A stretch of 64,000 bases of DNA from Rickettsia typhi (GCA_945862075.1 CAMAWV010000001.1:2721-66720), one strand, 5' to 3'; positions 37,018 through 59,400 are shown, counted from the first letter of the stretch. Numbers and translations: made by a program. Notes: a model not told the origin generated them from the sequence alone.

Positions 37018-40000
37018 GTGTTTCAATCTCTTAAAAAATATATCATTATTTTACTATCTGTTTTGTTGCTAGTTTTTTTTGTTTGTGAAAAAGCAAAAGC
37101 AGCCATGGTTGGTGGTTGCACCGACGATCCTGGAGACGGATCTATAATGGTTACCGCTAAACCTGCTACTATTTTTTCTAATGGCTCCGATGATTTATGG
37201 CAAACACAACTTTCTGATTGGCAAGAAACTCCCTATTATACAAATGGCGAAGATATCATAATAAATATTGCCATAAGAAACTCAGGCTATATCAATGCTC
37301 ATGGCGATAATGACAATAAGCTAAAATATCCTTGTAACATTTGCTCAAAAATTGTTAAATACAATACAAATGGTTCAATAGCCTATCAAACACCTAATTG
37401 CATTTGTGGTCCAAAAATTTATGTTCCACCCATACCTCAAGTTCAATCTTTTAGATACTGGCCTGGCTCAAAAGAAATATTTAAGCCAATCGAAACCATA
37501 AAACCAGAATGCGAAATAATTCTCGGTTACCCAGAAAAGGCACATTATGGCATAATAGATAATAACCAAAGAATTGCCTGTAGAAAAGGTTCTAGCAATG
37601 AGATAATAGAAATATCCAGTAATCATGTAGATATTGTGTCACCATTATTAAAAACCGATATAAATTCACAAGAATACACTTGTATCCCAATGGAATGGGC
37701 ACTAAATTTAGGCACTAACCATCCTAATTTTATTGCATCAAATTCTAAAATTACAACTTTCTTAAATCAAAATTACATAGATAAAGGTAAATACTATAGT
37801 AGGGCAACCCACTTACTTACTACAGATTTTAAAAAAATTCCCGATGAAAACGGTCAATCTGGTTATGAAATTGTGCATTTTCCTATAAATTACTATGAAA
37901 AAGAACTAAGTACCACAGAAACAGATCAAGCTAAAATTACCCTACTAAAAGATGTTAATTATCACCATACAAACAGCTGCAATGCTTCAAATGGCTTTAG
38001 TTTATATCTTGGTTTATTTCCAGAAAATTCTGATATGCCCGGATATAACGGCAAAATTTATGCTTATCATCTTTATTCTTTTAACCAAATATGCCGAATT
38101 TATCGCAATGGAATTTGTGAAAATGCAGTAACTCAATTTAAATTATCAAAATCAAATCTAGATTCTATATTGCCAAGTTCTTTTTTAGATAATAATAACA
38201 ATCCAATATCTATACCACATGGATATAAAATAAAATTTAAAATCTACGATAATTTTTACACATCTAACGAAGTGCGAGATCTATACAATGTCACTATAAC
38301 AAGTGGCATAGAAACTCAAAACTATGCAAAACCAAATCAAGATGAAGGGCTTTTTACTAATGTAAAATCTAAAATTGATGCAATTTTACAAGGTGCCCAA
38401 AGCTATAATTTTAATATTTCCAATATCAATTATGCTTCTTTATTTATATCCCCTGTTTATGCCGCAGATATAATTGAAGAAGCCACAATAGAAAATGCTA
38501 AAAAAAATGGTTTGATACGTGTTACTTACGAAAATTTTATAGTAAAAAATATAACCATTATTAGATATACATTAATTTTATTTTTGATGTTTTATGCCAT
38601 AAGCTACTTAATGGGATTATCAGAAATAAATCAAAAAGAATTAATACTGCGCCTATTCAAAATAGCGATAGTTCTTGCTTTTCTCGATCCTGCTTTAATT
38701 GATTTAACAACAAAAACTAAAATTTCACTAGATCCTAGCAAAACAATTCAAAAACAATATTCATTTCAAACAACTGCCACTTTGGGTTTTTTATTTTATC
38801 AAAAATATATTATTAATACTGCCATAGGAGGTCTAAACGATCTTATAGCAATAATTACTAATTTTTGCAAAGCTCTTAATCTAGACAGTGCTTCCGCTAT
38901 GCAAACAGAAGTTTCTTTGAGTAACAATGTTAATTTTGCCTATTTCGATAAAATATTAGAAAAAATCTTTTCAATAAAAACAGTAGGAGCAATAGTAAGT
39001 GCCATTTTCACTAAATGGCTAATTGGAGCGGTGCTTTTAGTGGTATTTTTATATTTTTTAGTAAAAACAATTTTTAAACTCCTAGTGACCTATATTTTAA
39101 ATTGGTTGCAAATTATCTTAGCATTGTCTTTAGGACCTATTTTCTTTTTATTTTTACTTTTTTCAAAAACGAAAGGGTTTTTCACTAAATGGATTGCTTT
39201 TACATTTGCCAGAGCCCTAGATATAGTTATTTTGGTAGCTCTTACCTTTCCGTTTATTGGCATCATATATGTTGATTTATTAGCTATTATTGGCGAAGAA
39301 TCTTGTTTAAGAGCAATTGGCCCTTCTTTTTTAAGACTTGAAGTATGGATTCAAAACGATAATCGTAACTCAGACTTAAATAATTTTTTTAGCTATATAT
39401 TTGCGTTAGCAAAAGATATTGCTTTAGTTTACATGATAAACCTAATCGCTTCTTATGCTCCTGAAATTTCTGGTAAAATTATTAATATTGCCGATAATCA
39501 AAACTCCGCAGGAAACTCAAAAGCAGCATCTAACATAGCAGCACAAACCACTGCTCAAGCCTTAAGTACCATAGCTTCTGGTATAAAATTTGCCAATTCT
39601 TCTTATGTTGGCGGTATGGCAAAATCTTATGTCAAACAAGGAGCTCTTGGCTTAAGCAACTTTGTTGGAGCAACTCGTGTTGCAACATTTGCCAAAAATA
39701 CCGCATTGAATCTTGGAAACCAGTTATACGAAGGCTTAACACTTAGAAATGCCGCTCAAATTCTTTTAGGCAAAGAAACCGCTGAAGCTATTTTTGGCAA
39801 AAAAAATACTACCAATACTGGCAGAGATGGCGGTGGTTCTGATGGCGGTAGCGGTGGTTCTGATGGTGGTAGCGGTGGTTCTGATGGTGGTAGCGGTGGT
39901 TCTGGCGGTGCTTTTGCTAGCAGTAGAACTAGTGCCTCTGGTAGCACTCCTGCTGATGGTAGCGGTGTTCCTGGCGGTGCTTTTGCTGGTGGTGCTCCTG

Positions 40001-51082: not shown

Positions 51083-54000
51083 ATGCCTGGCAAAATCAAA
51101 AATTCATTGCTAATAACTCTTATTGTTTTGCTTATTTTATGTGCTTTACCAATTTATTTTGTCGTAAATTATCAAAAGCAATTTAATACACAGGCAACAG
51201 CATCAGCAACAACACCTAATGTTTTAGCTGTTAACAAAGCTGAGACTAACCATGACAACGGTGGCGATTATTTTGAATATCAAAAAACAACAGATGATCC
51301 TTTTTATAGTAATACAATACCTAGCGGTACCGCAATATCTCAAAACTTTTTCTTACGCAAAGGACAATCCTTATTGTTTTATAAACATGCAATAACAAGT
51401 TCAGATAATAATTGTGGAGATTTAACTAGATTAACAGTAACAACCACTCCTCAACCAGCAGTTTTGTGCAAAGGAACTTATCCAGCCACTAGGCCAAATT
51501 CACAATGCATTGATTTTGTTGAAATTTGTGAGTTCAAAAATTCTGGTGGTTCGTTGCAATATAAAATTAAACAACAAGAATCTAATATAGATTGCATCAG
51601 TATTACTAAAATTTGCCTGCCAAGTGTAAGTGAAAAATGCCCTGTTAGTTCTACTACATATTCTGATGCTTATAAATGCATAGATAATACTGGTGCTACT
51701 TGCTCTAGCACTTTATGCCAAGTTAATTTTCCTACCGTTACTGTTTCTACCGGTGCGAATCTTGTTGTTCCGCAATGTTCTTCGCAAACATTGCAAACAA
51801 AAACAGCACAAGAAATCTTATTTTCTAGTTACAATTGTAGTAGCGATCTTACATTATGCCCAACAGCAAGAGATATAGCAGATCTAGTTAGAAATTTCTC
51901 AAGTCTAAAAACAGATCCCACACAAGCGCCACAATTTGCAACAGTAACCCCTCCTGCCTCTACATGTGAAAATGCATTAAAGTCAGCAATTCAACAATCA
52001 GACTTAATTCAAATAACAGCTCAAAACAACGATGCATGCTATGATTTAACCAATTATACTGGCCAAGTAGCAAATATTCCTCCAGCAGAAAACTATGCAG
52101 AATATTTAGGTTTTTTAAATAACGGTAAAAATGCTAAACCAATCGCTCCTATATCTAGTCTTTCTGCTGATAAATATTTTGGTAACCTCGATTACAGTGT
52201 CTCAAAAACCATATTTATCAACGAAAAAGGTGAGCTTAGCAACTTACCAGAATTTCAAGTAAGTAGCGATGGTTTGCAAATGAAAATGCTGTTTGTTAAT
52301 AACACAGATTTAAGCTCAACACCAACAGCAAACACGCTACCAGCTGCAGGTTTACAAACCAATATCAGTTTTCACCAAAATCAAACTTATAAAAACGGTC
52401 AAATGTTAAAAGTGGTTTTATGTAAAGAAGATGATGCGGCTTATCTAGATGATAACCAAAAATATAAATTTAACGAAAAATACGAAACAAAATGCGAAAA
52501 TTATTTTTTACCACCAGCTAATATTGAAGAAAATCTCATCAAAACTTACAATTCTTCTTTATCTAGTAGAGTTATGACATCTATGCCAAATTCCCTATCA
52601 GATGCCGATTATTTTACACAAAACACTACGGAACGATTTACAGATTTTACGGATTTTATTCATAAAACAGATAGCATTAAAGTTGTTAATCAAAGTGTAG
52701 CCGATAGACCAGTTTCTAGTGGTGTTTATAATAATGACAACCAAACACTTCGTTCACCTTATATGTTTGATAAAAATGGTTGGTTAAAATTAATGGTTGC
52801 CAACGAACCAAGATTACTCAAAGAATCAACATTAAGAAGCACCTCAATAAATATAAACAAACCAATTTGTCATAATTACGATAACAATTTTTATTGTCAC
52901 AACTCTTATGCAACACTATTTCCGCCAGAAGGAACTCCTAAATTAGATGATATCAAAAATTGGGAATACAAACAACTAAAACATGATTTACGATTAAGAC
53001 TCGCCTTTCAGATTGACGACCCCGATATTAATAAAAAGGAAATTACAACAACCTACTATCCAAATGCCGTCCTTGACAGTACATCACCTAGTATCGCCGC
53101 AGGCAATGAAGCATATAACAATAACACTGGTAAATACGAAGTAACAGTAAAAGTAACCAACCCTGCAAGAAAAGCTCAATTAGAAGTCATGACAAGATTA
53201 AACAATATCGTAAATGCTTTGTCCTTAACTACTCTATTTAAATTTGATAAACCAATTGGAGAGGAAAAAGATCAATCAAATGCTGAAAAAAAAAGTATGT
53301 TTAGTTATTTAATTACAAATAGTAAATTGAAATCTGTAGTAAAACTTTCGGCAGTTTTAATGTTAATGATTTTTGCTTTAATGTATTTAATGGGTTTAAG
53401 TAAGCTTGATCATCAAACTCTAGTCTCTATAATTCTAAAACTCTCTTTTGTTTTAGGTTTATTTAGCTCAGATGCTTGGCAACTCTATCATGATATTTTT
53501 GTCGAAAGAATTATCGAAATATTTAACGATATAAGCTACAAAACACTTACCATTTTATCGCCCCAAGATATTATTGATTCTCAAACAATACCAACTTTTG
53601 ATAAAGCAAACATAGCTACTTATTTTTATCAATCAATAGATGTTATTACCATGATTTTTAATCAAAAAAATCATTTCAAAATTATGGCAATATTTTTCAG
53701 TTATAGCTATGGTTTTGTTTATGTTTTTATTATTTATTACGGATTTTATATATATTTATTTGCTTCCGCCAATGCTATTTTAATGTTTATTTTAGCAAAA
53801 ATCATCATGATATTACTAATTAATTTATTGCCTTTGTTTTTATTGTGTTTGTTCTTTAAAACAACACAAAAAATGCTCGATAATTGGTTTTCACTGATAC
53901 TTGGCTATGGTTTTCAACAAATTTTTATTATTATTGCTGTTGCCTTTTTTAATATCATGATTGTATATATTTTAAAAATGATTTTAGGTTATAAAATATG

Positions 54001-56491
54001 CTGGGATTCTGTTTTAAAAATTAACTCTGGCAGTTTAGGTTATGGACTTCCTTTTAACGATATTATACTGTTTAAATTTTGGCAAGTTGAAGATTCTGAA
54101 AATGGCAACTATATTCCTTCTTTATTTCATATACTTTATTTTTTAATTTTGGTTTATGCCATGCAACACTTTATTAATTTCGCCGCTGGTTTAGGATCTA
54201 GAATAGCTGGTGGAGTAAGTGTTGAAGGTATTGCTAATGCTATTAAAGCTGATTTAACTGGTAACATCGCCTCTAAAATGGCACTAAAAGCTGTTAATAA
54301 ATTAACCAAAGATATGAAAAATCGCCTAATTGATAAAATTTCTTTTGGGTATAGCGGGGAATTGGCCGATAAAAGAATCCAACAAGCTAACGAGAGAATA
54401 AATGATCACAGAGAAGCTTTTCAAGATGTTCAAAAAGAATTAAATACATATCAATCATCAAGTGAATTTTTAGCATTAAGTGACGAAGAAAAAGATATTG
54501 TGTTGAAATCAAAAGCAAATCAGCTAGCTGAAGAGTCTGGCTATGGTAACTATGCAAATTTAATAAAATCCGCTAATCAATCAAAACAATCTTCCTCAAC
54601 CACACTTCCTGGAATGCTATTTGATGTTACTGGATCTCAAGGTCAAAAATATATTGGTAAAGCAACTAATGCCATTACTGGCAGAAACTTAGTAACTGGC
54701 CTTGCAAATGATACTGGTGATTTTAACGAAGCAAACTTACTAGGTATTAACAGAAGAATAAATTCAAAAGATGTTGTAGAAGCTCAAAAAGTTATTGATA
54801 GAAAGATAGGAGAATTAGAAAACATAGTCCTCACACAACCAAACTTAACCCCGGATCAACAAACTGCAATAAGAAACAGAATAGAAAATTTAAAAATACA
54901 AAAAGAATCAATTAAACTCAAGCAAACCACTTGGTCATCTATGGAAAAATTAAGATCTTTTACTAACAAACATAGCATCGAAGCAACAATAGGTGTAGCT
55001 ACAATTGGTGCGGTTGGTGGAGTTTTAGGTGGTGCGACAGGTGCATTAGTTGGTGCGGTTGGTGGAGTTTTAGGTGGATCTAAAGGTGGAGCTGTTGCTG
55101 GACATGATATCGCTGTTAGTATTAAAACAAATGTTGGTTCTTTGGTGGGTGTTTTGCCAGGTGGTGCGGTAGGTGGTGCGCTAGGTGGTGCGCTAGGTAA
55201 ATTATTTGTTGGGTTAGGTGCTATAGCAGGTGGTTTCATAGGCTTAGCTGTTGGCATAACTAGAGGCCCAGTAAGTGGCATAACTAGAGGCACAGTAAGT
55301 GGCACATATGCAGGAGTTACTACAGGTATTAGATTTAGCAATGCTAATATTCGTAACATCAATCCTGCTTATTTAAGAGCTAAGATTCGTAACACCAATC
55401 TTGCTTATTTAAGAACAGGTTTCGTTGCCAATGCAAAGAATTTAAGAACAGGTTTCGTTGCCAATGCAAAGAAACTGGCACAATTTACAGAAAATGAATC
55501 CATAACTTCAAAAACATTAATTGAAAATACTTCTAGCAAAATCGGAAGAGCTACAGGTTCAGCCGCAAGAGCTGCAGGTTCAGCCGCAATAGCTACAGGT
55601 TCAGCTATTATGAACATCGCAAGAGCTGCAAGTAATCCTACTAGCAACATCGCAAGAGCTGTAAGTTCAGCTAGTAGGAACATCGCAAGAGCTGCAAGTT
55701 CAGCTAGTAGCAATATAAAGCGTTTTGGCCATTCAGCTATCTCCCGAGGGTCTTTTGCCTATAATGTTAGCCGAAATTTTGTCGCAAGTGCTTTTGTTAA
55801 AATCGCCCAAAACGATACAAGTGCTTTTGTTAAAATCGCCCAAAACGATGCAAAATATAATTTGCAACAAAAACTAAAAAGTAATCCTAAAAATATTTCT
55901 ACAGATAAACAAGAAGAAATAATTGATAATTTTATTGAACAAATTAAGCCTTATTTATCAGGTTCCAATCTAAATAAATTAAACAGCCTATTGCAAGTAA
56001 CAGATTATCAAGATCGTAATCTTGGCAAAATTCACAATATTATTGAAAACAACCTAGCAAAACTCAACCAAGATAAAACACTTTTTAATTTATTTGTAAA
56101 AATAGCTCAACAAGAAAAGAAAAAACGTTATGAAAGCAATGATATTGGAAATTTAACTTCTTCTACTGTTGGTGCGACTTTGGTTGGAGCTGGTTATGCG
56201 ACTGGATATACAATGCAATCAATACAAAATTATCGAGAAAAATCAGCTTTACAACATAAACAACACAAAGCATTACAAACTATTGATACTTTAATGAGTA
56301 CTTTAACAGAATCTTCAAGGGAAAAAATAAAAACACTTACAAAAGAAATAGAAAAGCCACATTCTCAAAATATAAATGGGTTAATCAAAGATGCTGTACG
56401 CGAAGTAACAACAAACGATATCACAACACAATATACAGATAAAGCCAAACTTTTACTTGCTTTACAAGAATATGCTAAAACCATAAATTAA
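51083..56491 (+). CDS. virB6: Giant VirB6/TrbL-like type IV secretion membrane protein (1802 aa)
   Basis: N-terminal anchor SLLITLIVLLILCALPIYFVV and a ~720-aa Cys-rich N-domain. The polytopic core is about aa 751-1042 (nt ~53335-54210), with LSAVLMLMIFALMYLMGLSKLDHQ and LPLFLLCLFFKTTQKMLDNWFSL. The C-terminal ~750 aa contains glycine-zipper segments and many short tandem duplications. Confidence 0.75.
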   Translation: MPGKIKNSLLITLIVLLILCALPIYFVVNYQKQFNTQATASATTPNVLAVNKAETNHDNGGDYFEYQKTTDDPFYSNTIPSGTAISQNFFLRKGQSLLFYKHAITSSDNNCGDLTRLTVTTTPQPAVLCKGTYPATRPNSQCIDFVEICEFKNSGGSLQYKIKQQESNIDCISITKICLPSVSEKCPVSSTTYSDAYKCIDNTGATCSSTLCQVNFPTVTVSTGANLVVPQCSSQTLQTKTAQEILFSSYNCSSDLTLCPTARDIADLVRNFSSLKTDPTQAPQFATVTPPASTCENALKSAIQQSDLIQITAQNNDACYDLTNYTGQVANIPPAENYAEYLGFLNNGKNAKPIAPISSLSADKYFGNLDYSVSKTIFINEKGELSNLPEFQVSSDGLQMKMLFVNNTDLSSTPTANTLPAAGLQTNISFHQNQTYKNGQMLKVVLCKEDDAAYLDDNQKYKFNEKYETKCENYFLPPANIEENLIKTYNSSLSSRVMTSMPNSLSDADYFTQNTTERFTDFTDFIHKTDSIKVVNQSVADRPVSSGVYNNDNQTLRSPYMFDKNGWLKLMVANEPRLLKESTLRSTSININKPICHNYDNNFYCHNSYATLFPPEGTPKLDDIKNWEYKQLKHDLRLRLAFQIDDPDINKKEITTTYYPNAVLDSTSPSIAAGNEAYNNNTGKYEVTVKVTNPARKAQLEVMTRLNNIVNALSLTTLFKFDKPIGEEKDQSNAEKKSMFSYLITNSKLKSVVKLSAVLMLMIFALMYLMGLSKLDHQTLVSIILKLSFVLGLFSSDAWQLYHDIFVERIIEIFNDISYKTLTILSPQDIIDSQTIPTFDKANIATYFYQSIDVITMIFNQKNHFKIMAIFFSYSYGFVYVFIIYYGFYIYLFASANAILMFILAKIIMILLINLLPLFLLCLFFKTTQKMLDNWFSLILGYGFQQIFIIIAVAFFNIMIVYILKMILGYKICWDSVLKINSGSLGYGLPFNDIILFKFWQVEDSENGNYIPSLFHILYFLILVYAMQHFINFAAGLGSRIAGGVSVEGIANAIKADLTGNIASKMALKAVNKLTKDMKNRLIDKISFGYSGELADKRIQQANERINDHREAFQDVQKELNTYQSSSEFLALSDEEKDIVLKSKANQLAEESGYGNYANLIKSANQSKQSSSTTLPGMLFDVTGSQGQKYIGKATNAITGRNLVTGLANDTGDFNEANLLGINRRINSKDVVEAQKVIDRKIGELENIVLTQPNLTPDQQTAIRNRIENLKIQKESIKLKQTTWSSMEKLRSFTNKHSIEATIGVATIGAVGGVLGGATGALVGAVGGVLGGSKGGAVAGHDIAVSIKTNVGSLVGVLPGGAVGGALGGALGKLFVGLGAIAGGFIGLAVGITRGPVSGITRGTVSGTYAGVTTGIRFSNANIRNINPAYLRAKIRNTNLAYLRTGFVANAKNLRTGFVANAKKLAQFTENESITSKTLIENTSSKIGRATGSAARAAGSAAIATGSAIMNIARAASNPTSNIARAVSSASRNIARAASSASSNIKRFGHSAISRGSFAYNVSRNFVASAFVKIAQNDTSAFVKIAQNDAKYNLQQKLKSNPKNISTDKQEEIIDNFIEQIKPYLSGSNLNKLNSLLQVTDYQDRNLGKIHNIIENNLAKLNQDKTLFNLFVKIAQQEKKKRYESNDIGNLTSSTVGATLVGAGYATGYTMQSIQNYREKSALQHKQHKALQTIDTLMSTLTESSREKIKTLTKEIEKPHSQNINGLIKDAVREVTTNDITTQYTDKAKLLLALQEYAKTIN
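55007..55852 (+). repeat. Patchwork of at least seven different short in-frame tandem duplications inside the C-terminal extension of the second giant gene
   Basis: 45-bp period, two copies of ggtgcggttggtggagttttaggtgg (55007, 55052). 24 bp x2 (55253-55300, GITRGxVS). 36 bp x2 (55346-55417, xIRNxNxAYLRx). 33 bp x2 (55418-55483, GFVANAKxL..). 21 bp x3 (55547-55609, xAxGSAx). 33 bp x3 (55613-55711, NIARAxSxxxx). 33 bp x2 (55787-55852, SAFVKIAQNDx). Confidence 0.88.
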
Positions 56492-56492
56492 C

Positions 56493-59400
56493 ATGAATTT
56501 TTTTAAAAATAACATAAAATTACTAAAAAAAATCTTAGCAATATTTTTTATGCTGTGTTTAATATCTTGCAAAGATCAAGGTTGTACCGAAGGTGATGAT
56601 TTTGGCGAATTCACTATTCAAAATTTACAATTTCCACCTTATGCAGGAGGAATAAAAAAACGTTTAGATTATAATAAAACAATATGCAATGACTACAACA
56701 AAGAATTATTAAAACTGATAAATGTAGATTTATGTAACGATGGCACCATGATAAACTGCTCTTCTAGTACAAGAGGCAACGATCAAAACTGCACTCTTAA
56801 TCTTGGAACAACTTGCAATAATGATTTGGTAAATCTTTATACACTGCAAAATAAATGTTATAGTACCTATGCTAAAAAACAAACCTCTGACGGTGGTAAA
56901 AGCTATGTTTTTGCTACACATGATGATGAAAATAATCCAGACTTTTATTTATTCCCAGATGCCGATATTTCGGTAAAAATCCGAGGAGAAATTACTATAA
57001 ATAGATCATCACCAAATACAGCTATAACTATTCAAAAAAATTCGCCATCAGAACTGCTAAAGGTAAATCAAAATGAGAAAATAGATGTTTTTTTAAAAAA
57101 TGATGTCAGTAATATTTATTTTGATTTTTATAAGGCTATCCCAACAGTTAAAGGAATCTGTGATACTGATTTTTTGGACCTACATATACCAAATAATCAA
57201 CAAGATTTTTACACAATGCAAGAAAATGTTAATAATGATTACCACAACGCAACAAATGGCATACAAAACAAACTAAAAACAATTATTGTTTATAATATAC
57301 CTTATGTTGGTGAAACAACTTTTATCGCCCCTGATATTAACACGTTGGAGTCTGATAACGGTAAATGGATAGTAAATAAAAACAACGAAGAATTAAAAAT
57401 AGATAATGCAAGCTCCACAAAAAAAAGAAAACTTGGTACAGGTTTTGTTGTAGCAACAACAGAACTTAACGGTTTTGGTTTGCAAACGATGAGTAGCGAC
57501 GAATATTTATTAGCAAGACAAGATATAGTAGATTATTACAAAACCTCTTCTCCTTGCTCTAATTTTACTTATAGGGGAAGTTATATTAACAATGTTGTTG
57601 GTTCTTCTCTTGTTGGAACCAGATCAGTTTCTTCAGGCGTGACTTTTGGTGCTAATTCTATTTTAAAAGCAGGATCTACTGCCAGTTTTCTTGTTCTTCC
57701 TACAGGGTCACCCCCCCCCAGCTGCACATTTAACCCAATGTTAAGTGTAACACAAGATATTTCTGGCTTTGTAGAATTTGGCTTTGCTTGTTTGCAAAAT
57801 ACTAGTCCTTGCACACAATCTAGTTTACCTAGCACAATTACAGTTAGTATAGTAAGTTCGGAAGGTGATTTTGAAGTATTTCCTTCTTTATCTCCAGCTA
57901 TTGAAAAACAAATAAATATTCCAGGTGGTAAAATTTTTGTTAAAAAAGGTAGTACTTTACTTATTCATACAACACCATCAAGCTCAACAACCTCAACAAC
58001 TATTGCAAATCTTAAAACAAATGGTCTTTATGTCAAAACCACTCCTCGACCAGCAATTTACTGTTCAAAACAAAAATTTCGAATACAAAAAAACACTATG
58101 TGCATTAATTCTAATCCAGAATTTTGCATAATTGATCCTCAATTTTGTACATCAGTTCAAAAAGGCAGTACTACTGCAACTCATAAATGCGAATGTGCTA
58201 GTAACAAATTTTTTCAAACACAATCATGGTCTCCAGCATTTACAAAGGATTCATCATCGCCAGCTTATAAAATTAATCTAGATCAACTGAAAAATGACTA
58301 TTGTAGCGATCAAACAAAATTGGATGAGTGCAAAGCATGCCTAATAGAACTACAAAATAGCCCCGGATTGTCTAACACAAATAATATTCAAAAAACACTA
58401 TATGATACCACAAAATCTGAAAATGTTTGTTTTGATCTAGAAGAGATTAGAAACAGAATAAGTGATGCAACAAAAATTATTGATGACATCCAGATCGAAC
58501 CAAAGAAAAACGATCTAGATTGGATCATGGAAAAAATATTAAACACAAAAATTAAAATTTTACCTTATTTTTCAGATAACTCTTATGGAGTTTTGCCAAA
58601 ACCATCTTTGTCTAATTTAAAGCTTCCTATTCCTACTACCGTCACTGCCCATGCTGATGTTTGCAATCAATCACGACAACTTCAAACCACCATAAAAAGC
58701 AAATTTAATGGTAAAATAGAATTATATATTGCTGATAATGATGAGGTTACAAACACAAATTATATACCATCAACAACAGAAAAATTTCGGATCACTACAA
58801 ATAATCAATTCACTTTACGAGATGGTGCTGGTTTAAAAATTAGCTTGAAAAATATTACAAATAAATCAACAGGCGATACTACTCGATATGATTACAATAA
58901 TAGTTGCGATTATTTAATTGGAAATTCTGCATCTTCCTCCCCGTCTTGCCAAGATTTATATACTCTAAAAAATGGTAATTTAATGCGAAATAGCATCCAA
59001 TACAGCATTAATCCTCTTAATGTATGTATAAAAAACGACTCCAACCTTTCTTATAACCCATTCGCAGGTGCTTATCAAGAAATATTTTGCTATAAAAAAA
59101 CTTCATCAGAAGAAGTAAAAAATATGGGCTTAAAGTTTGAGCTAGACACAACAGGTGACACAAAAAATATTTTTGTTAACAATTGCTACAAATCATCAGG
59201 TACGATAACTGAAAACTGCCAAATTACTTGTCCGAGTCCGTCGAGTGGGTCGTCGACATGTAATATGTGCAATGCAATGAAAATTGTTAATCCGAGCTTC
59301 GACTCTCCAACACCAAACAACAATATTGGAATCAATTCAAGCGATTACTACACTTGCATAGGAAAAGAGGAAATATCTAAAGCGATTTCAGGTAGTTATA

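Follow-up and report, generated by a model that had tools for sequence, protein, structure and literature searches.

The extended VirB6 proteins of Rickettsiales type IV secretion systems (T4SS) combine at least five hydrophobic helices with at least one large hydrophilic domain beside the VirB6 core (PMC12857230, PMC7648143), and the role of these added domains is an open question (PMC2653234, PMC12857230). In the R388 machine VirB6 is a pentamer in which two of the five hydrophobic helices lie in the bilayer and the others pack outside it (PMC9259494), and the extended VirB6 proteins of Anaplasma expose their tails at the cell surface (PMC7648143). Here we describe a 64-kb stretch of Rickettsia typhi DNA (GCA_945862075.1, CAMAWV010000001.1:2721-66720; ~32% G+C), referred to below as the window, which encodes three giant TrbL/VirB6-like paralogs. 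Paralogs 2 and 3 are the products of adjacent genes, and their C-terminal tails carry six short hydrophobic glycine-zipper segments, of a kind found in every ortholog in our database.

Glycine-zipper segments in the tails of paralogs 2 and 3

A first-pass annotation of the window had pointed to hydrophobic segments rich in GxxxG downstream of the VirB6-like cores of paralogs 2 and 3, and the placement holds. Translation of 54983-55265 on the plus strand reproduces the sequence reported for paralog 2 exactly (ATIGVATIGAVGGVLGGATGALVGAVGGVLGGSKGGAVAGHDIAVSIKTNVGSLVGVLPGGAVGGALGGALGKLFVGLGAIAGGFIGLAVGITR, residues 1301-1394 of the 1802-amino-acid open reading frame [ORF]), and the four strings reported for paralog 3 are all found, between nt 61596 and 62366 (Table 1). 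In both ORFs the TrbL/VirB6 core lies upstream of the segments; with the Pfam gathering score of PF04610 (25.9 bits) as the threshold for membership, the cores of paralogs 2 and 3 score 49.6 and 74.4 bits, respectively, and paralog 1 falls slightly under the cut-off at 24.1 bits.

Blocks of this type were scored as runs of at least 17 residues lacking D/E/K/R/H/N/Q, with at least 25% Gly, a mean Kyte-Doolittle hydropathy (KD) of 1.0 or higher, and two or more GxxxG. Across the six frames of the window (21,473 amino acids in stop-free stretches) seven such blocks occur, all of them in the tails of paralogs 2 and 3. The six segments span 22 to 40 residues and consist of about 35% Gly with Ala, Val, Ile, Leu, and Phe, with Gly at every fourth residue. 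They are uncharged, which is partly a consequence of their having been chosen as runs free of D/E/K/R/H/N/Q, but these residues make up 33 to 35% of the tails, and the longest runs without them (33 and 40 amino acids) were not matched in any of 5000 shuffles. The mean KD of the segments is 1.2 to 2.2, and their maxima over 19-residue windows are 1.5 to 2.2 (2.21 for the best 19-mer of paralog 2 zipper 2). Gly-Gly pairs at a spacing of four number 43 across the six segments, whereas shuffling within segments predicts 23.2 (z = 6.1; 0 of 5000 shuffles); a spacing of eight is also enriched (z = 3.9), and spacings of two (z = -5.5) and six are depleted.

The transmembrane glycine-zipper motif, (G/A/S)xxxGxxxG, is said to have been set out by Kim et al. 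in PNAS in 2005, and reportedly occurs in the homo-oligomeric channels MscL, MscS, KcsA, and VacA. The segments carry this motif, as (G/A/S)xxxGxxxG or GxxxGxxx(G/S/T) in uncharged hydrophobic sequence and above what their composition would give, and the GxxxGxxxG columns are invariant in orthologs at 27-50% identity, so the name given in the first pass is apt. They differ from a polar Gly linker in being uncharged and hydrophobic, and they have K/R flanks. The polar type is seen instead in paralog 1, whose tail (39830-40161) has polar Gly-rich repeats, (GGSDGGSGGS)n and (PGGAFAGGAPAGG)n, and no hydrophobic zipper; these repeats are encoded by 21- and 63-nt units of up to 98% identity.

Paralog 2 zipper 2 is followed by a conserved RGxxRGxxSG, contains conserved G and R columns, and is longer than its counterparts in orthologs by way of a 12-nt repeat present in 3.3 copies. 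Two antisense ORFs overlie the zipper DNA on the minus strand (54856-55362 and 55405-55713); we regard these as probable by-products of the GGN/GCN repeats of codons, given that 12 orthologs keep the sense frame along 1800 amino acids.

Table 1. Coordinates of the VirB6-like paralogs of the window and of their cores, post-core domain, and zipper segments
Feature	Position	Strand	Description
Paralog 2 zipper 1	54983..55081	+	aa 1301-1333; ATIGVATIGAVGGVLGGATGALVGAVGGVLGGS; holds invariant A5 columns G48/G52/G56; overlaps 21-nt tandem repeat
Paralog 2 zipper 2	55133..55261	+	aa 1351-1393; two blocks parted by one Lys: VGSLVGVLPGGAVGGALGGALG-K-LFVGLGAIAGGFIGLAVGIT
Paralog 3 zipper 1	61596..61676	+	aa 1702-1728; LLGGGVGMVGGAVGMVGGIFGIVLGGT; invariant A6 columns G26/G30/G34; overlaps 21-nt repeat
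Paralog 3 zipper 2	61770..61889	+	aa 1760-1799; followed by conserved AVPMxFxGARSGVN; overlaps 12- and 27-nt repeats
Paralog 3 zipper 3	62088..62165	+	aa 1866-1891; VGALYGAAVGGVVGGFVGGVGGLLAS; identical in 89% ortholog
Paralog 3 zipper 4	62301..62366	+	aa 1937-1958; GGAATVGGIAGLVSGTGMLAGA; weakest segment, KD 1.18, Hessa sum 4.34
Paralog 1	37018..42024	+	1668 aa; VirB6-like comparator without hydrophobic zipper
Paralog 2	51083..56491	+	1802 aa; giant extended VirB6-like protein
Paralog 2 VirB6/TrbL core	53300..54232	+	aa 740-1050; Pfam match aa 758-960
Paralog 3	56493..62744	+	2083 aa; giant extended VirB6-like protein
Paralog 3 VirB6/TrbL core	59805..60722	+	aa 1105-1410; AlphaFold2 pLDDT (predicted local distance difference test) 75-95
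Paralog 3 post-core helical domain	60852..61544	+	aa ~1454-1684; between core and first zipper

Conservation of the zipper modules

Paralog 3 has nine orthologs in the database (P0001-P0009, 42-100% identity) and paralog 2 has 12 (42-89%), each of them with between one and five zipper segments at the corresponding position of its tail. The four-residue Gly periodicity recurs in the two ortholog sets (z = 8.9 and 7.7); these values, and those for composition and flanks, exclude the window and its 89% relative. The ortholog segments are 35% Gly, 16-20% Ala, 16-19% Val, and 1-2% Pro, and their flanks contain 21-23% K+R compared with 3-10% D+E. In module alignments at 27-50% identity (A5, A6, and A9), invariant Gly columns stand four residues apart: G48/G52/G56 in A5, G26/G30/G34 in A6, and both G22/G26 and G101/G105/G109 in A9, which also holds a nearly invariant Arg.

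The order of elements within each module is likewise recognizable. In paralog 2 a helix (NTWxSMxKLR) is followed by zipper 1, a polar loop of 10-25 amino acids, zipper 2, and RGxxRGxxSG; in paralog 3, zipper 1 is followed by a loop containing SGKH, zipper 2, AVPMxFxGARSGVN, and then two more zippers. Every ortholog retains the GxxxGxxxG register, the K/R flanks, and a position some 260-300 amino acids past the VirB6 core and immediately after a folded helical domain.

Distribution among giant VirB6-like proteins

A scan of 1.84 billion representative proteins with the core profile yielded 2521 matches, 279 of them at E<=1e-30, and the best 150 are almost all giants of 1500-2600 amino acids; the search thus exposes a large, uncharacterized metagenomic family of giant VirB6-like proteins. 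We surveyed the 115 relatives among these best 150 whose tails are at least 300 amino acids long. No 19-mer with a KD of at least 1.6 is present in the tails of 99 of the 115, and the remaining relatives have small-residue hydrophobic stretches, mostly 225-370 amino acids past the core. Glycine zippers proper are confined to the ortholog groups of paralogs 2 and 3 and to the scattered proteins P0080, P0061, P0092, and P0045, that is, to about four of the ~100 other giants of this kind. The paralog-2 clade is zipper-positive throughout (13 of 13 members), as is the paralog-3 clade (11 of 11), and none of the three members of the paralog-1 clade (P0037 and P0038 included) is. The suggestion in the first pass that such segments are unusual for the family is supported by these counts.

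In a neighbor-joining tree of the cores, midpoint-rooted and without bootstrap support, the paralog-2 and paralog-3 clades are not sisters. Because of this, and because no similarity is detectable between the paralog-2 and paralog-3 tails (best BLASTP E value, 0.81), the zipper trait seems, from these sequence comparisons, to have arisen in parallel in two paralogs of a single lineage. A match between the two modules in hhalign (probability 92.5) was rejected as evidence of homology, as it covers only 25 low-complexity columns, and recent gene conversion between the zipper DNA of the two genes was also rejected, the copies being 60-79% identical. Parallel gain could mean that the two paralogs have a role in common or, alternatively, a mutational bias in common. 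A different Gly-rich architecture occurs in the same superfamily: P0010, a distant VirB6-like relative of 3399 amino acids from outside the window, has a Gal_Lectin domain (PF02140) and, in its N-terminal part, many poly-Gly blocks with hydrophobic flanks (e.g., VIAIAGGGGGGGGASI).

VirB6-like cores and the post-core domain

Paralog 2 comprises an N-terminal signal anchor, a Cys-rich domain of ~720 amino acids, the TrbL/VirB6 core, and a repeat-rich tail of ~760 amino acids; in paralog 3, an N-terminus with a lipobox is followed by a Cys-rich domain of ~1100 amino acids, the core, and a tail of ~680 amino acids. The cores have five to seven hydrophobic peaks, the N-terminal extensions are ~500-1100 amino acids, and the C-terminal tails ~680-850 amino acids, which places these proteins within the definition of extended VirB6 given above. 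A profile of the three cores (A2) matches R388 TrwI/VirB6 in the PDB (7o3v; E value, 1e-7), and the AlphaFold2 model of the paralog-3 core has the TrwI-type bundle of long helices: its top Foldseek matches are the TrwI chains 8rtd_L, 8rt9_F, and 7o3v_G (probability 1.00), with TM-scores of about 0.45-0.5 on the target.

The domain that follows the core of paralog 3 is all-helical (pLDDT 90-96) and is kept among paralog-3 orthologs; a Foldseek search found no fold match for it in the PDB. A weaker consensus of this domain extends over a wider alignment of giant VirB6-like proteins.

Repeat turnover and sequence divergence

Tandem DNA repeats of 12, 21, and 27 nt underlie the zipper segments, and part of the period-4 signal of the window stems from the 12- and 21-nt repeats, although the periodicity recurs in divergent orthologs. 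Divergence was measured against the syntenic contig (L005), whose proteins are 89% identical. Paralog-3 zippers 1 and 2 show 21 nonsynonymous and two synonymous differences and an insertion of ~64 amino acids in the zipper 2 region of the relative; paralog-3 zippers 3 and 4 are unchanged in amino acids, zipper 4 with a single synonymous change. As judged from these alignments, the exact zipper sequence is remodeled by repeat expansion and contraction while the zipper character persists.

The paralog-2 tail also has tandem duplications of 24, 36, 33, 21, 33, and 33 nt between 55252 and 55853, with identities of up to 100%, encoding repeats of ITRGxVSG, IRNxNxAYLR, TGFVANAK, NIARAASS, and SAFVKIAQND. 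The copy number of these duplications differs in the 89% ortholog, reflecting active repeat turnover.

What the segments may do

The reading that we favor, and that we consider about equally apt to be right or wrong, is that the segments are selected, helix-packing glycine-zipper hairpins that would anchor or oligomerize the tails in lipid or another hydrophobic environment. The zippers would form hairpin-like pairs, one such pair of segments in paralog 2 and two pairs in paralog 3; both proteins would be extended VirB6 subunits of a T4SS of the Rickettsiales type, with the zippers in their C-terminal extensions. Their small-residue faces would permit tight packing of helix against helix in lipid or other hydrophobic surroundings, perhaps tethering the hydrophilic tail to the membrane or to a hydrophobic VirB6 stalk, and the even number of segments in each module suggests re-entrant hairpins that leave the downstream tail on the same side. 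They might also drive homo- or hetero-oligomerization; in the solved R388 machine VirB6 is pentameric. Because the zipper-carrying paralogs 2 and 3 are adjacent and gained the trait apparently in parallel, a paralog 2-paralog 3 assembly may form; Ehrlichia VirB6 paralogs are reported to interact with one another in Bao et al. (2009), a study that we cite from its entry in PMC8035066.

Whether the segments enter a bilayer is less easily judged. On the scale of Hessa 2005 the sums are 0.06 for LFVGLGAIAGGFIGLAVGI in paralog 2 zipper 2, 1.47 for paralog 3 zipper 1, with the other four at 3-4.3, and the core helices of the same proteins span -3.7 to +4.5, overlapping the zipper values. The first-pass annotation set its segments against canonical VirB6 helices, and the premise that such helices are transmembrane looks shaky by analogy with R388: because most of the hydrophobic VirB6 helices lie outside the bilayer in that structure, it is unsafe to read them as transmembrane. 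The change in topology that the first pass proposed is accordingly conjectural.

Several observations weigh against packed zipper hairpins. By the Hessa sums, which are a crude measure, four of the six segments are only marginally hydrophobic (3-4.3 kcal/mol). In AlphaFold2 models the zippers have pLDDT values of 20-30 and are mostly coil, even where the core and post-core domain are confident. For paralog 3 (aa 1105-1990; 55 sequences) the core and post-core domain are resolved and the zippers are not, remaining mostly coil; the model of paralog 2 (aa 740-1450) shows short, low-confidence helices at the zippers, but with an alignment of 13 sequences and a mean pLDDT of 43.6 it is uninformative for the core too. 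The kinship to Gly-zipper_Omp, Gly-zipper_YMGG, and Rick_17kDa_Anti raised in the first pass found no support: a search of the Pfam Gly-zipper clan (PF13488, PF13441, PF13436, and PF05433) gave no match to the isolated segments at E<=10 or to the full proteins at E<=1, although the HMMER bias filter could mask weak low-complexity matches to these families. The profile of the paralog-2 hairpin (A9) found nothing at E<=0.01 among 5.8 billion proteins, and as it missed its own orthologs too, that search cannot show absence elsewhere; no PDB sequence matched the zipper module above chance level. The lack of similarity between the paralog-2 and paralog-3 tails and the failure of the hhalign match (see above) count on the same side, as does the divergence of the DNA. 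Against L005 the paralog-2 zipper block has 48% amino-acid identity and a synonymous divergence (dS) of 0.39, compared with 0.006-0.06 in its flanks; in both genes, zipper blocks 1 and 2 diverge more between close relatives than any other part, and because they lie over tandem repeats, slippage contributes to the zipper pattern.

Much of this is what would be expected if the segments were soluble, flexible, low-complexity spacers produced by slippage of 12- and 21-nt units of the GGT-GGT-GCT-GTT type, tolerated as linkers because the tail is in any case rich in repeats and evolves fast, with the period of four a mutational by-product. The segments coincide exactly with the tandem repeats of 12, 21, and 27 nt, the paralog-2 tail has many further perfect duplications of 24-36 nt, the zipper blocks are hot spots of divergence and indels with raised dS between the 89% orthologs, and the low pLDDT would suit a disordered spacer; tandem-repeat variation is also described at the 3' end of Anaplasma virB6-4 (PMC7648143). 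We nonetheless regard this explanation as unlikely, since neutral drift would not be expected to hold the G-x3-G-x3-G columns, the K/R flanks, and the position in 24 of 24 members of two clades, nor to keep zero charge over 17-71 residues down to ~42% identity. The polar Gly spacer in paralog 1 of the same genome looks different, a V/I/L/F-rich, P-poor, uncharged sequence with a KD of 1.2-2.2 is unlike a disordered linker, and paralog-3 zippers 3 and 4 have not changed in amino acids.

A rather improbable alternative is that the zippers form a delivered membrane-insertion module, the tail being extracytoplasmic or released and its zippers inserting, as an oligomeric pore or anchor, either into the membrane of a target or host or into the outer membrane of the bacterium itself; in such a case they might assume the tip or pore-like role of VirB5. 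By analogy, glycine zippers are needed for the membrane translocation or toxicity of the type VI effector Tde1 (PMC10240207) and the type VII effector TelE (PMC10434224), and they occur in Cdz proteins (PMC5380434). The C-terminal extensions of Anaplasma phagocytophilum VirB6-3 and VirB6-4 are trypsin-accessible on intact cells and have been proposed to be released into the host (PMC7648143). In R388, VirB6 is mostly periplasmic with VirB5 on top, the N-terminus of VirB5 resembling a pore former (PMC9259494), and the absence of VirB5, along with duplicated VirB4, VirB8, and VirB9, is a hallmark of the Rickettsiales vir-homolog (rvh) system (PMC11077975). The hypervariable zipper blocks 1 and 2, together with a dN/dS (nonsynonymous to synonymous divergence) of at least 1 in the N-terminal domains, would also fit exposure at the surface or to the host. 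However, the tails have no recognizable secretion signal and no sequence sign of export or cleavage, and no immunity-like partner gene lies beside them. Moreover, the well-folded helical domain with which the tails begin and the K/R-rich sequence after the last core helix would fit a cytoplasmic tail under the classical Agrobacterium tumefaciens topology, as given in PMC7648143.

A bolder version, to which we would give a still smaller chance, takes the hairpins of paralogs 2 and 3 as a bundle of at least 10 helices built on the five-fold symmetry of VirB6, possibly in a mixed paralog 2-paralog 3 complex, and threaded outward so as to insert into the outer membrane or that of a target cell. 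The result would be a built-in tip or translocon for a VirB5-less T4SS: a structural subunit with its own pore former, remodeled quickly through repeats.

Beta-rich or amyloid-like self-association, or peripheral membrane binding, in the manner of Abeta and PrP or of periplasmic Gly-zipper lipoproteins with the segments aggregating or coating a surface and with no bilayer-spanning helices, is very improbable. In its favor, Val, Ile, and Gly are abundant, the period is strictly 4 rather than 3.6, no confident AlphaFold helix covers the zippers, and there is a weak match to the zipper region of the OmpA-like PdsO (33 amino acids; 20.6 bits against an NCBIfam cut-off of 152; E value, 2.8e-4), but the Rick_17kDa_Anti and Gly-zipper_Omp/YMGG profiles do not match, and beyond composition the evidence points neither way. 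Other faint, partial Pfam and NCBIfam matches of the segments and tails (DUF5862, HK97 tape-measure protein, and MtfM, in addition to PdsO) were set aside, none being to a Gly-zipper family.

Gene neighborhood and other features of the paralogs

As in rvh systems, virB6 is multicopy, with three paralogs in 64 kb. Paralog 1 is preceded by efp-dapF and followed by a pstS-like gene; paralogs 2 and 3 are preceded by pntB-argH-spoT-glmS and followed by dprA. The genes flanking the virB6 paralogs (efp, dapF, PBP-like, pntB, argH, spoT, glmS, and dprA) and the ORFs examined are of the housekeeping kind, and 20 further ORFs examined in the window contain no virB3, virB4, or other T4SS domain; the tandem arrangement downstream of virB3-virB4 that marks rvh loci (PMC7648143) is thus missing from the window. 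This housekeeping setting departs from the virB3-virB4-virB6 operon of the classical Rickettsiales. Among the loci considered (the window, L005, and L006), the order spoT-glmS-paralog 2-paralog 3-dprA is retained in L005.

The N-terminus of paralog 3 (56493-56620) has a lipoprotein-type signal (...FFMLCLISC) followed by CKDQGCTEGDDFGEF, and the motif SCxDxGCIEADDFGEY is the consensus of ~100 metagenomic giant VirB6-like proteins; a related motif, GCTDDPGDG, is found at the N-terminus of paralog 1 (37018-37140). Against L005 the Cys-rich N-terminal domains have dN/dS values of 1.02 (paralog 2, 51170-53299) and 1.65 (paralog 3, 56580-59804; 111 nonsynonymous and 18 synonymous differences over 1064 codons), compared with ~0.5 for the VirB6 cores, suggesting that selection on the N-terminal domain, which is probably periplasmic or at the surface, is relaxed or diversifying. 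At its C-terminus (62599-62702) paralog 3 has a proline-rich tandem repeat, PPELPPEPPLPPELPPELQPELPSPPEEPPPPMPPPP, encoded by 30- and 42-nt repeats, which the 89% ortholog shares and more distant orthologs lack; in appearance it resembles the spacers of TonB and VirB10 or eukaryotic Pro-rich ligands.

Comparison with known systems

The paralogs compare with RvhB6a-e of Rickettsia, VirB6-1 to VirB6-4 of Anaplasma and Ehrlichia, and TraG of the F plasmid in being several divergent VirB6/TrbL proteins of one genome, with large hydrophilic extensions at the N-terminus, the C-terminus, or both. As in the extended VirB6 proteins of the Rickettsiales, their tails are repeat-rich and variable between strains (PMC2653234, PMC8035066, PMC7648143, PMC12857230), and their cores fit PF04610 and the TrwI/VirB6 fold. 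They differ from those proteins in being far larger (1668-2083 amino acids), with a Cys-rich N-terminal domain of ~700-1100 amino acids, in lacking virB3 and virB4 alongside in the window, and in having hydrophobic zipper hairpins in two of the tails.

With transmembrane glycine zippers the segments share small-xxx-small repeats, uncharged hydrophobic sequence, and a conserved register, and the host protein, VirB6, is homo-oligomeric (PMC9259494). Unlike typical zippers of this class, they are 35-47% Gly, a far higher proportion that leaves their hydrophobicity marginal; their membrane insertion is putative, and they are built and remodeled by short tandem DNA repeats. The Pfam Gly-zipper families (PF13488, PF13441, PF13436, and PF05433), one of which is a Rickettsia antigen, are similarly G/A/V/L-rich with GxxxG spacing, but those are small lipoproteins or outer membrane-associated proteins, whereas the zippers described here are in the tails of a polytopic T4SS subunit. 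In the secreted antibacterial or host-directed toxins Tde1, TelE/LXG, and Caulobacter CdzC/D, too, a short Gly-zipper is present on a protein handled by a secretion machine, and there it is required for membrane crossing or damage (PMC10240207, PMC10434224, PMC5380434); in contrast, the motif here is on a structural subunit, in two to four copies, accompanied by neither a toxin domain nor an immunity gene, and any secretion of the tail is putative.

We found no description of glycine zippers in VirB6 in the literature searched, where the co-mention that we examined concerns the unrelated Cdz system. Extended VirB6 tails are known and glycine zippers are known; their combination is apparently new within that literature. 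If the zippers are only inner-membrane anchors, they would be a modest, lineage-specific embellishment of VirB6; were the tails extracytoplasmic, like those of Anaplasma, the zippers would become candidates for parts of the machine that themselves insert into a membrane. As a short, conserved, and mutable module, they provide a handle on what the large added domains of extended VirB6 proteins do (PMC2653234, PMC12857230).

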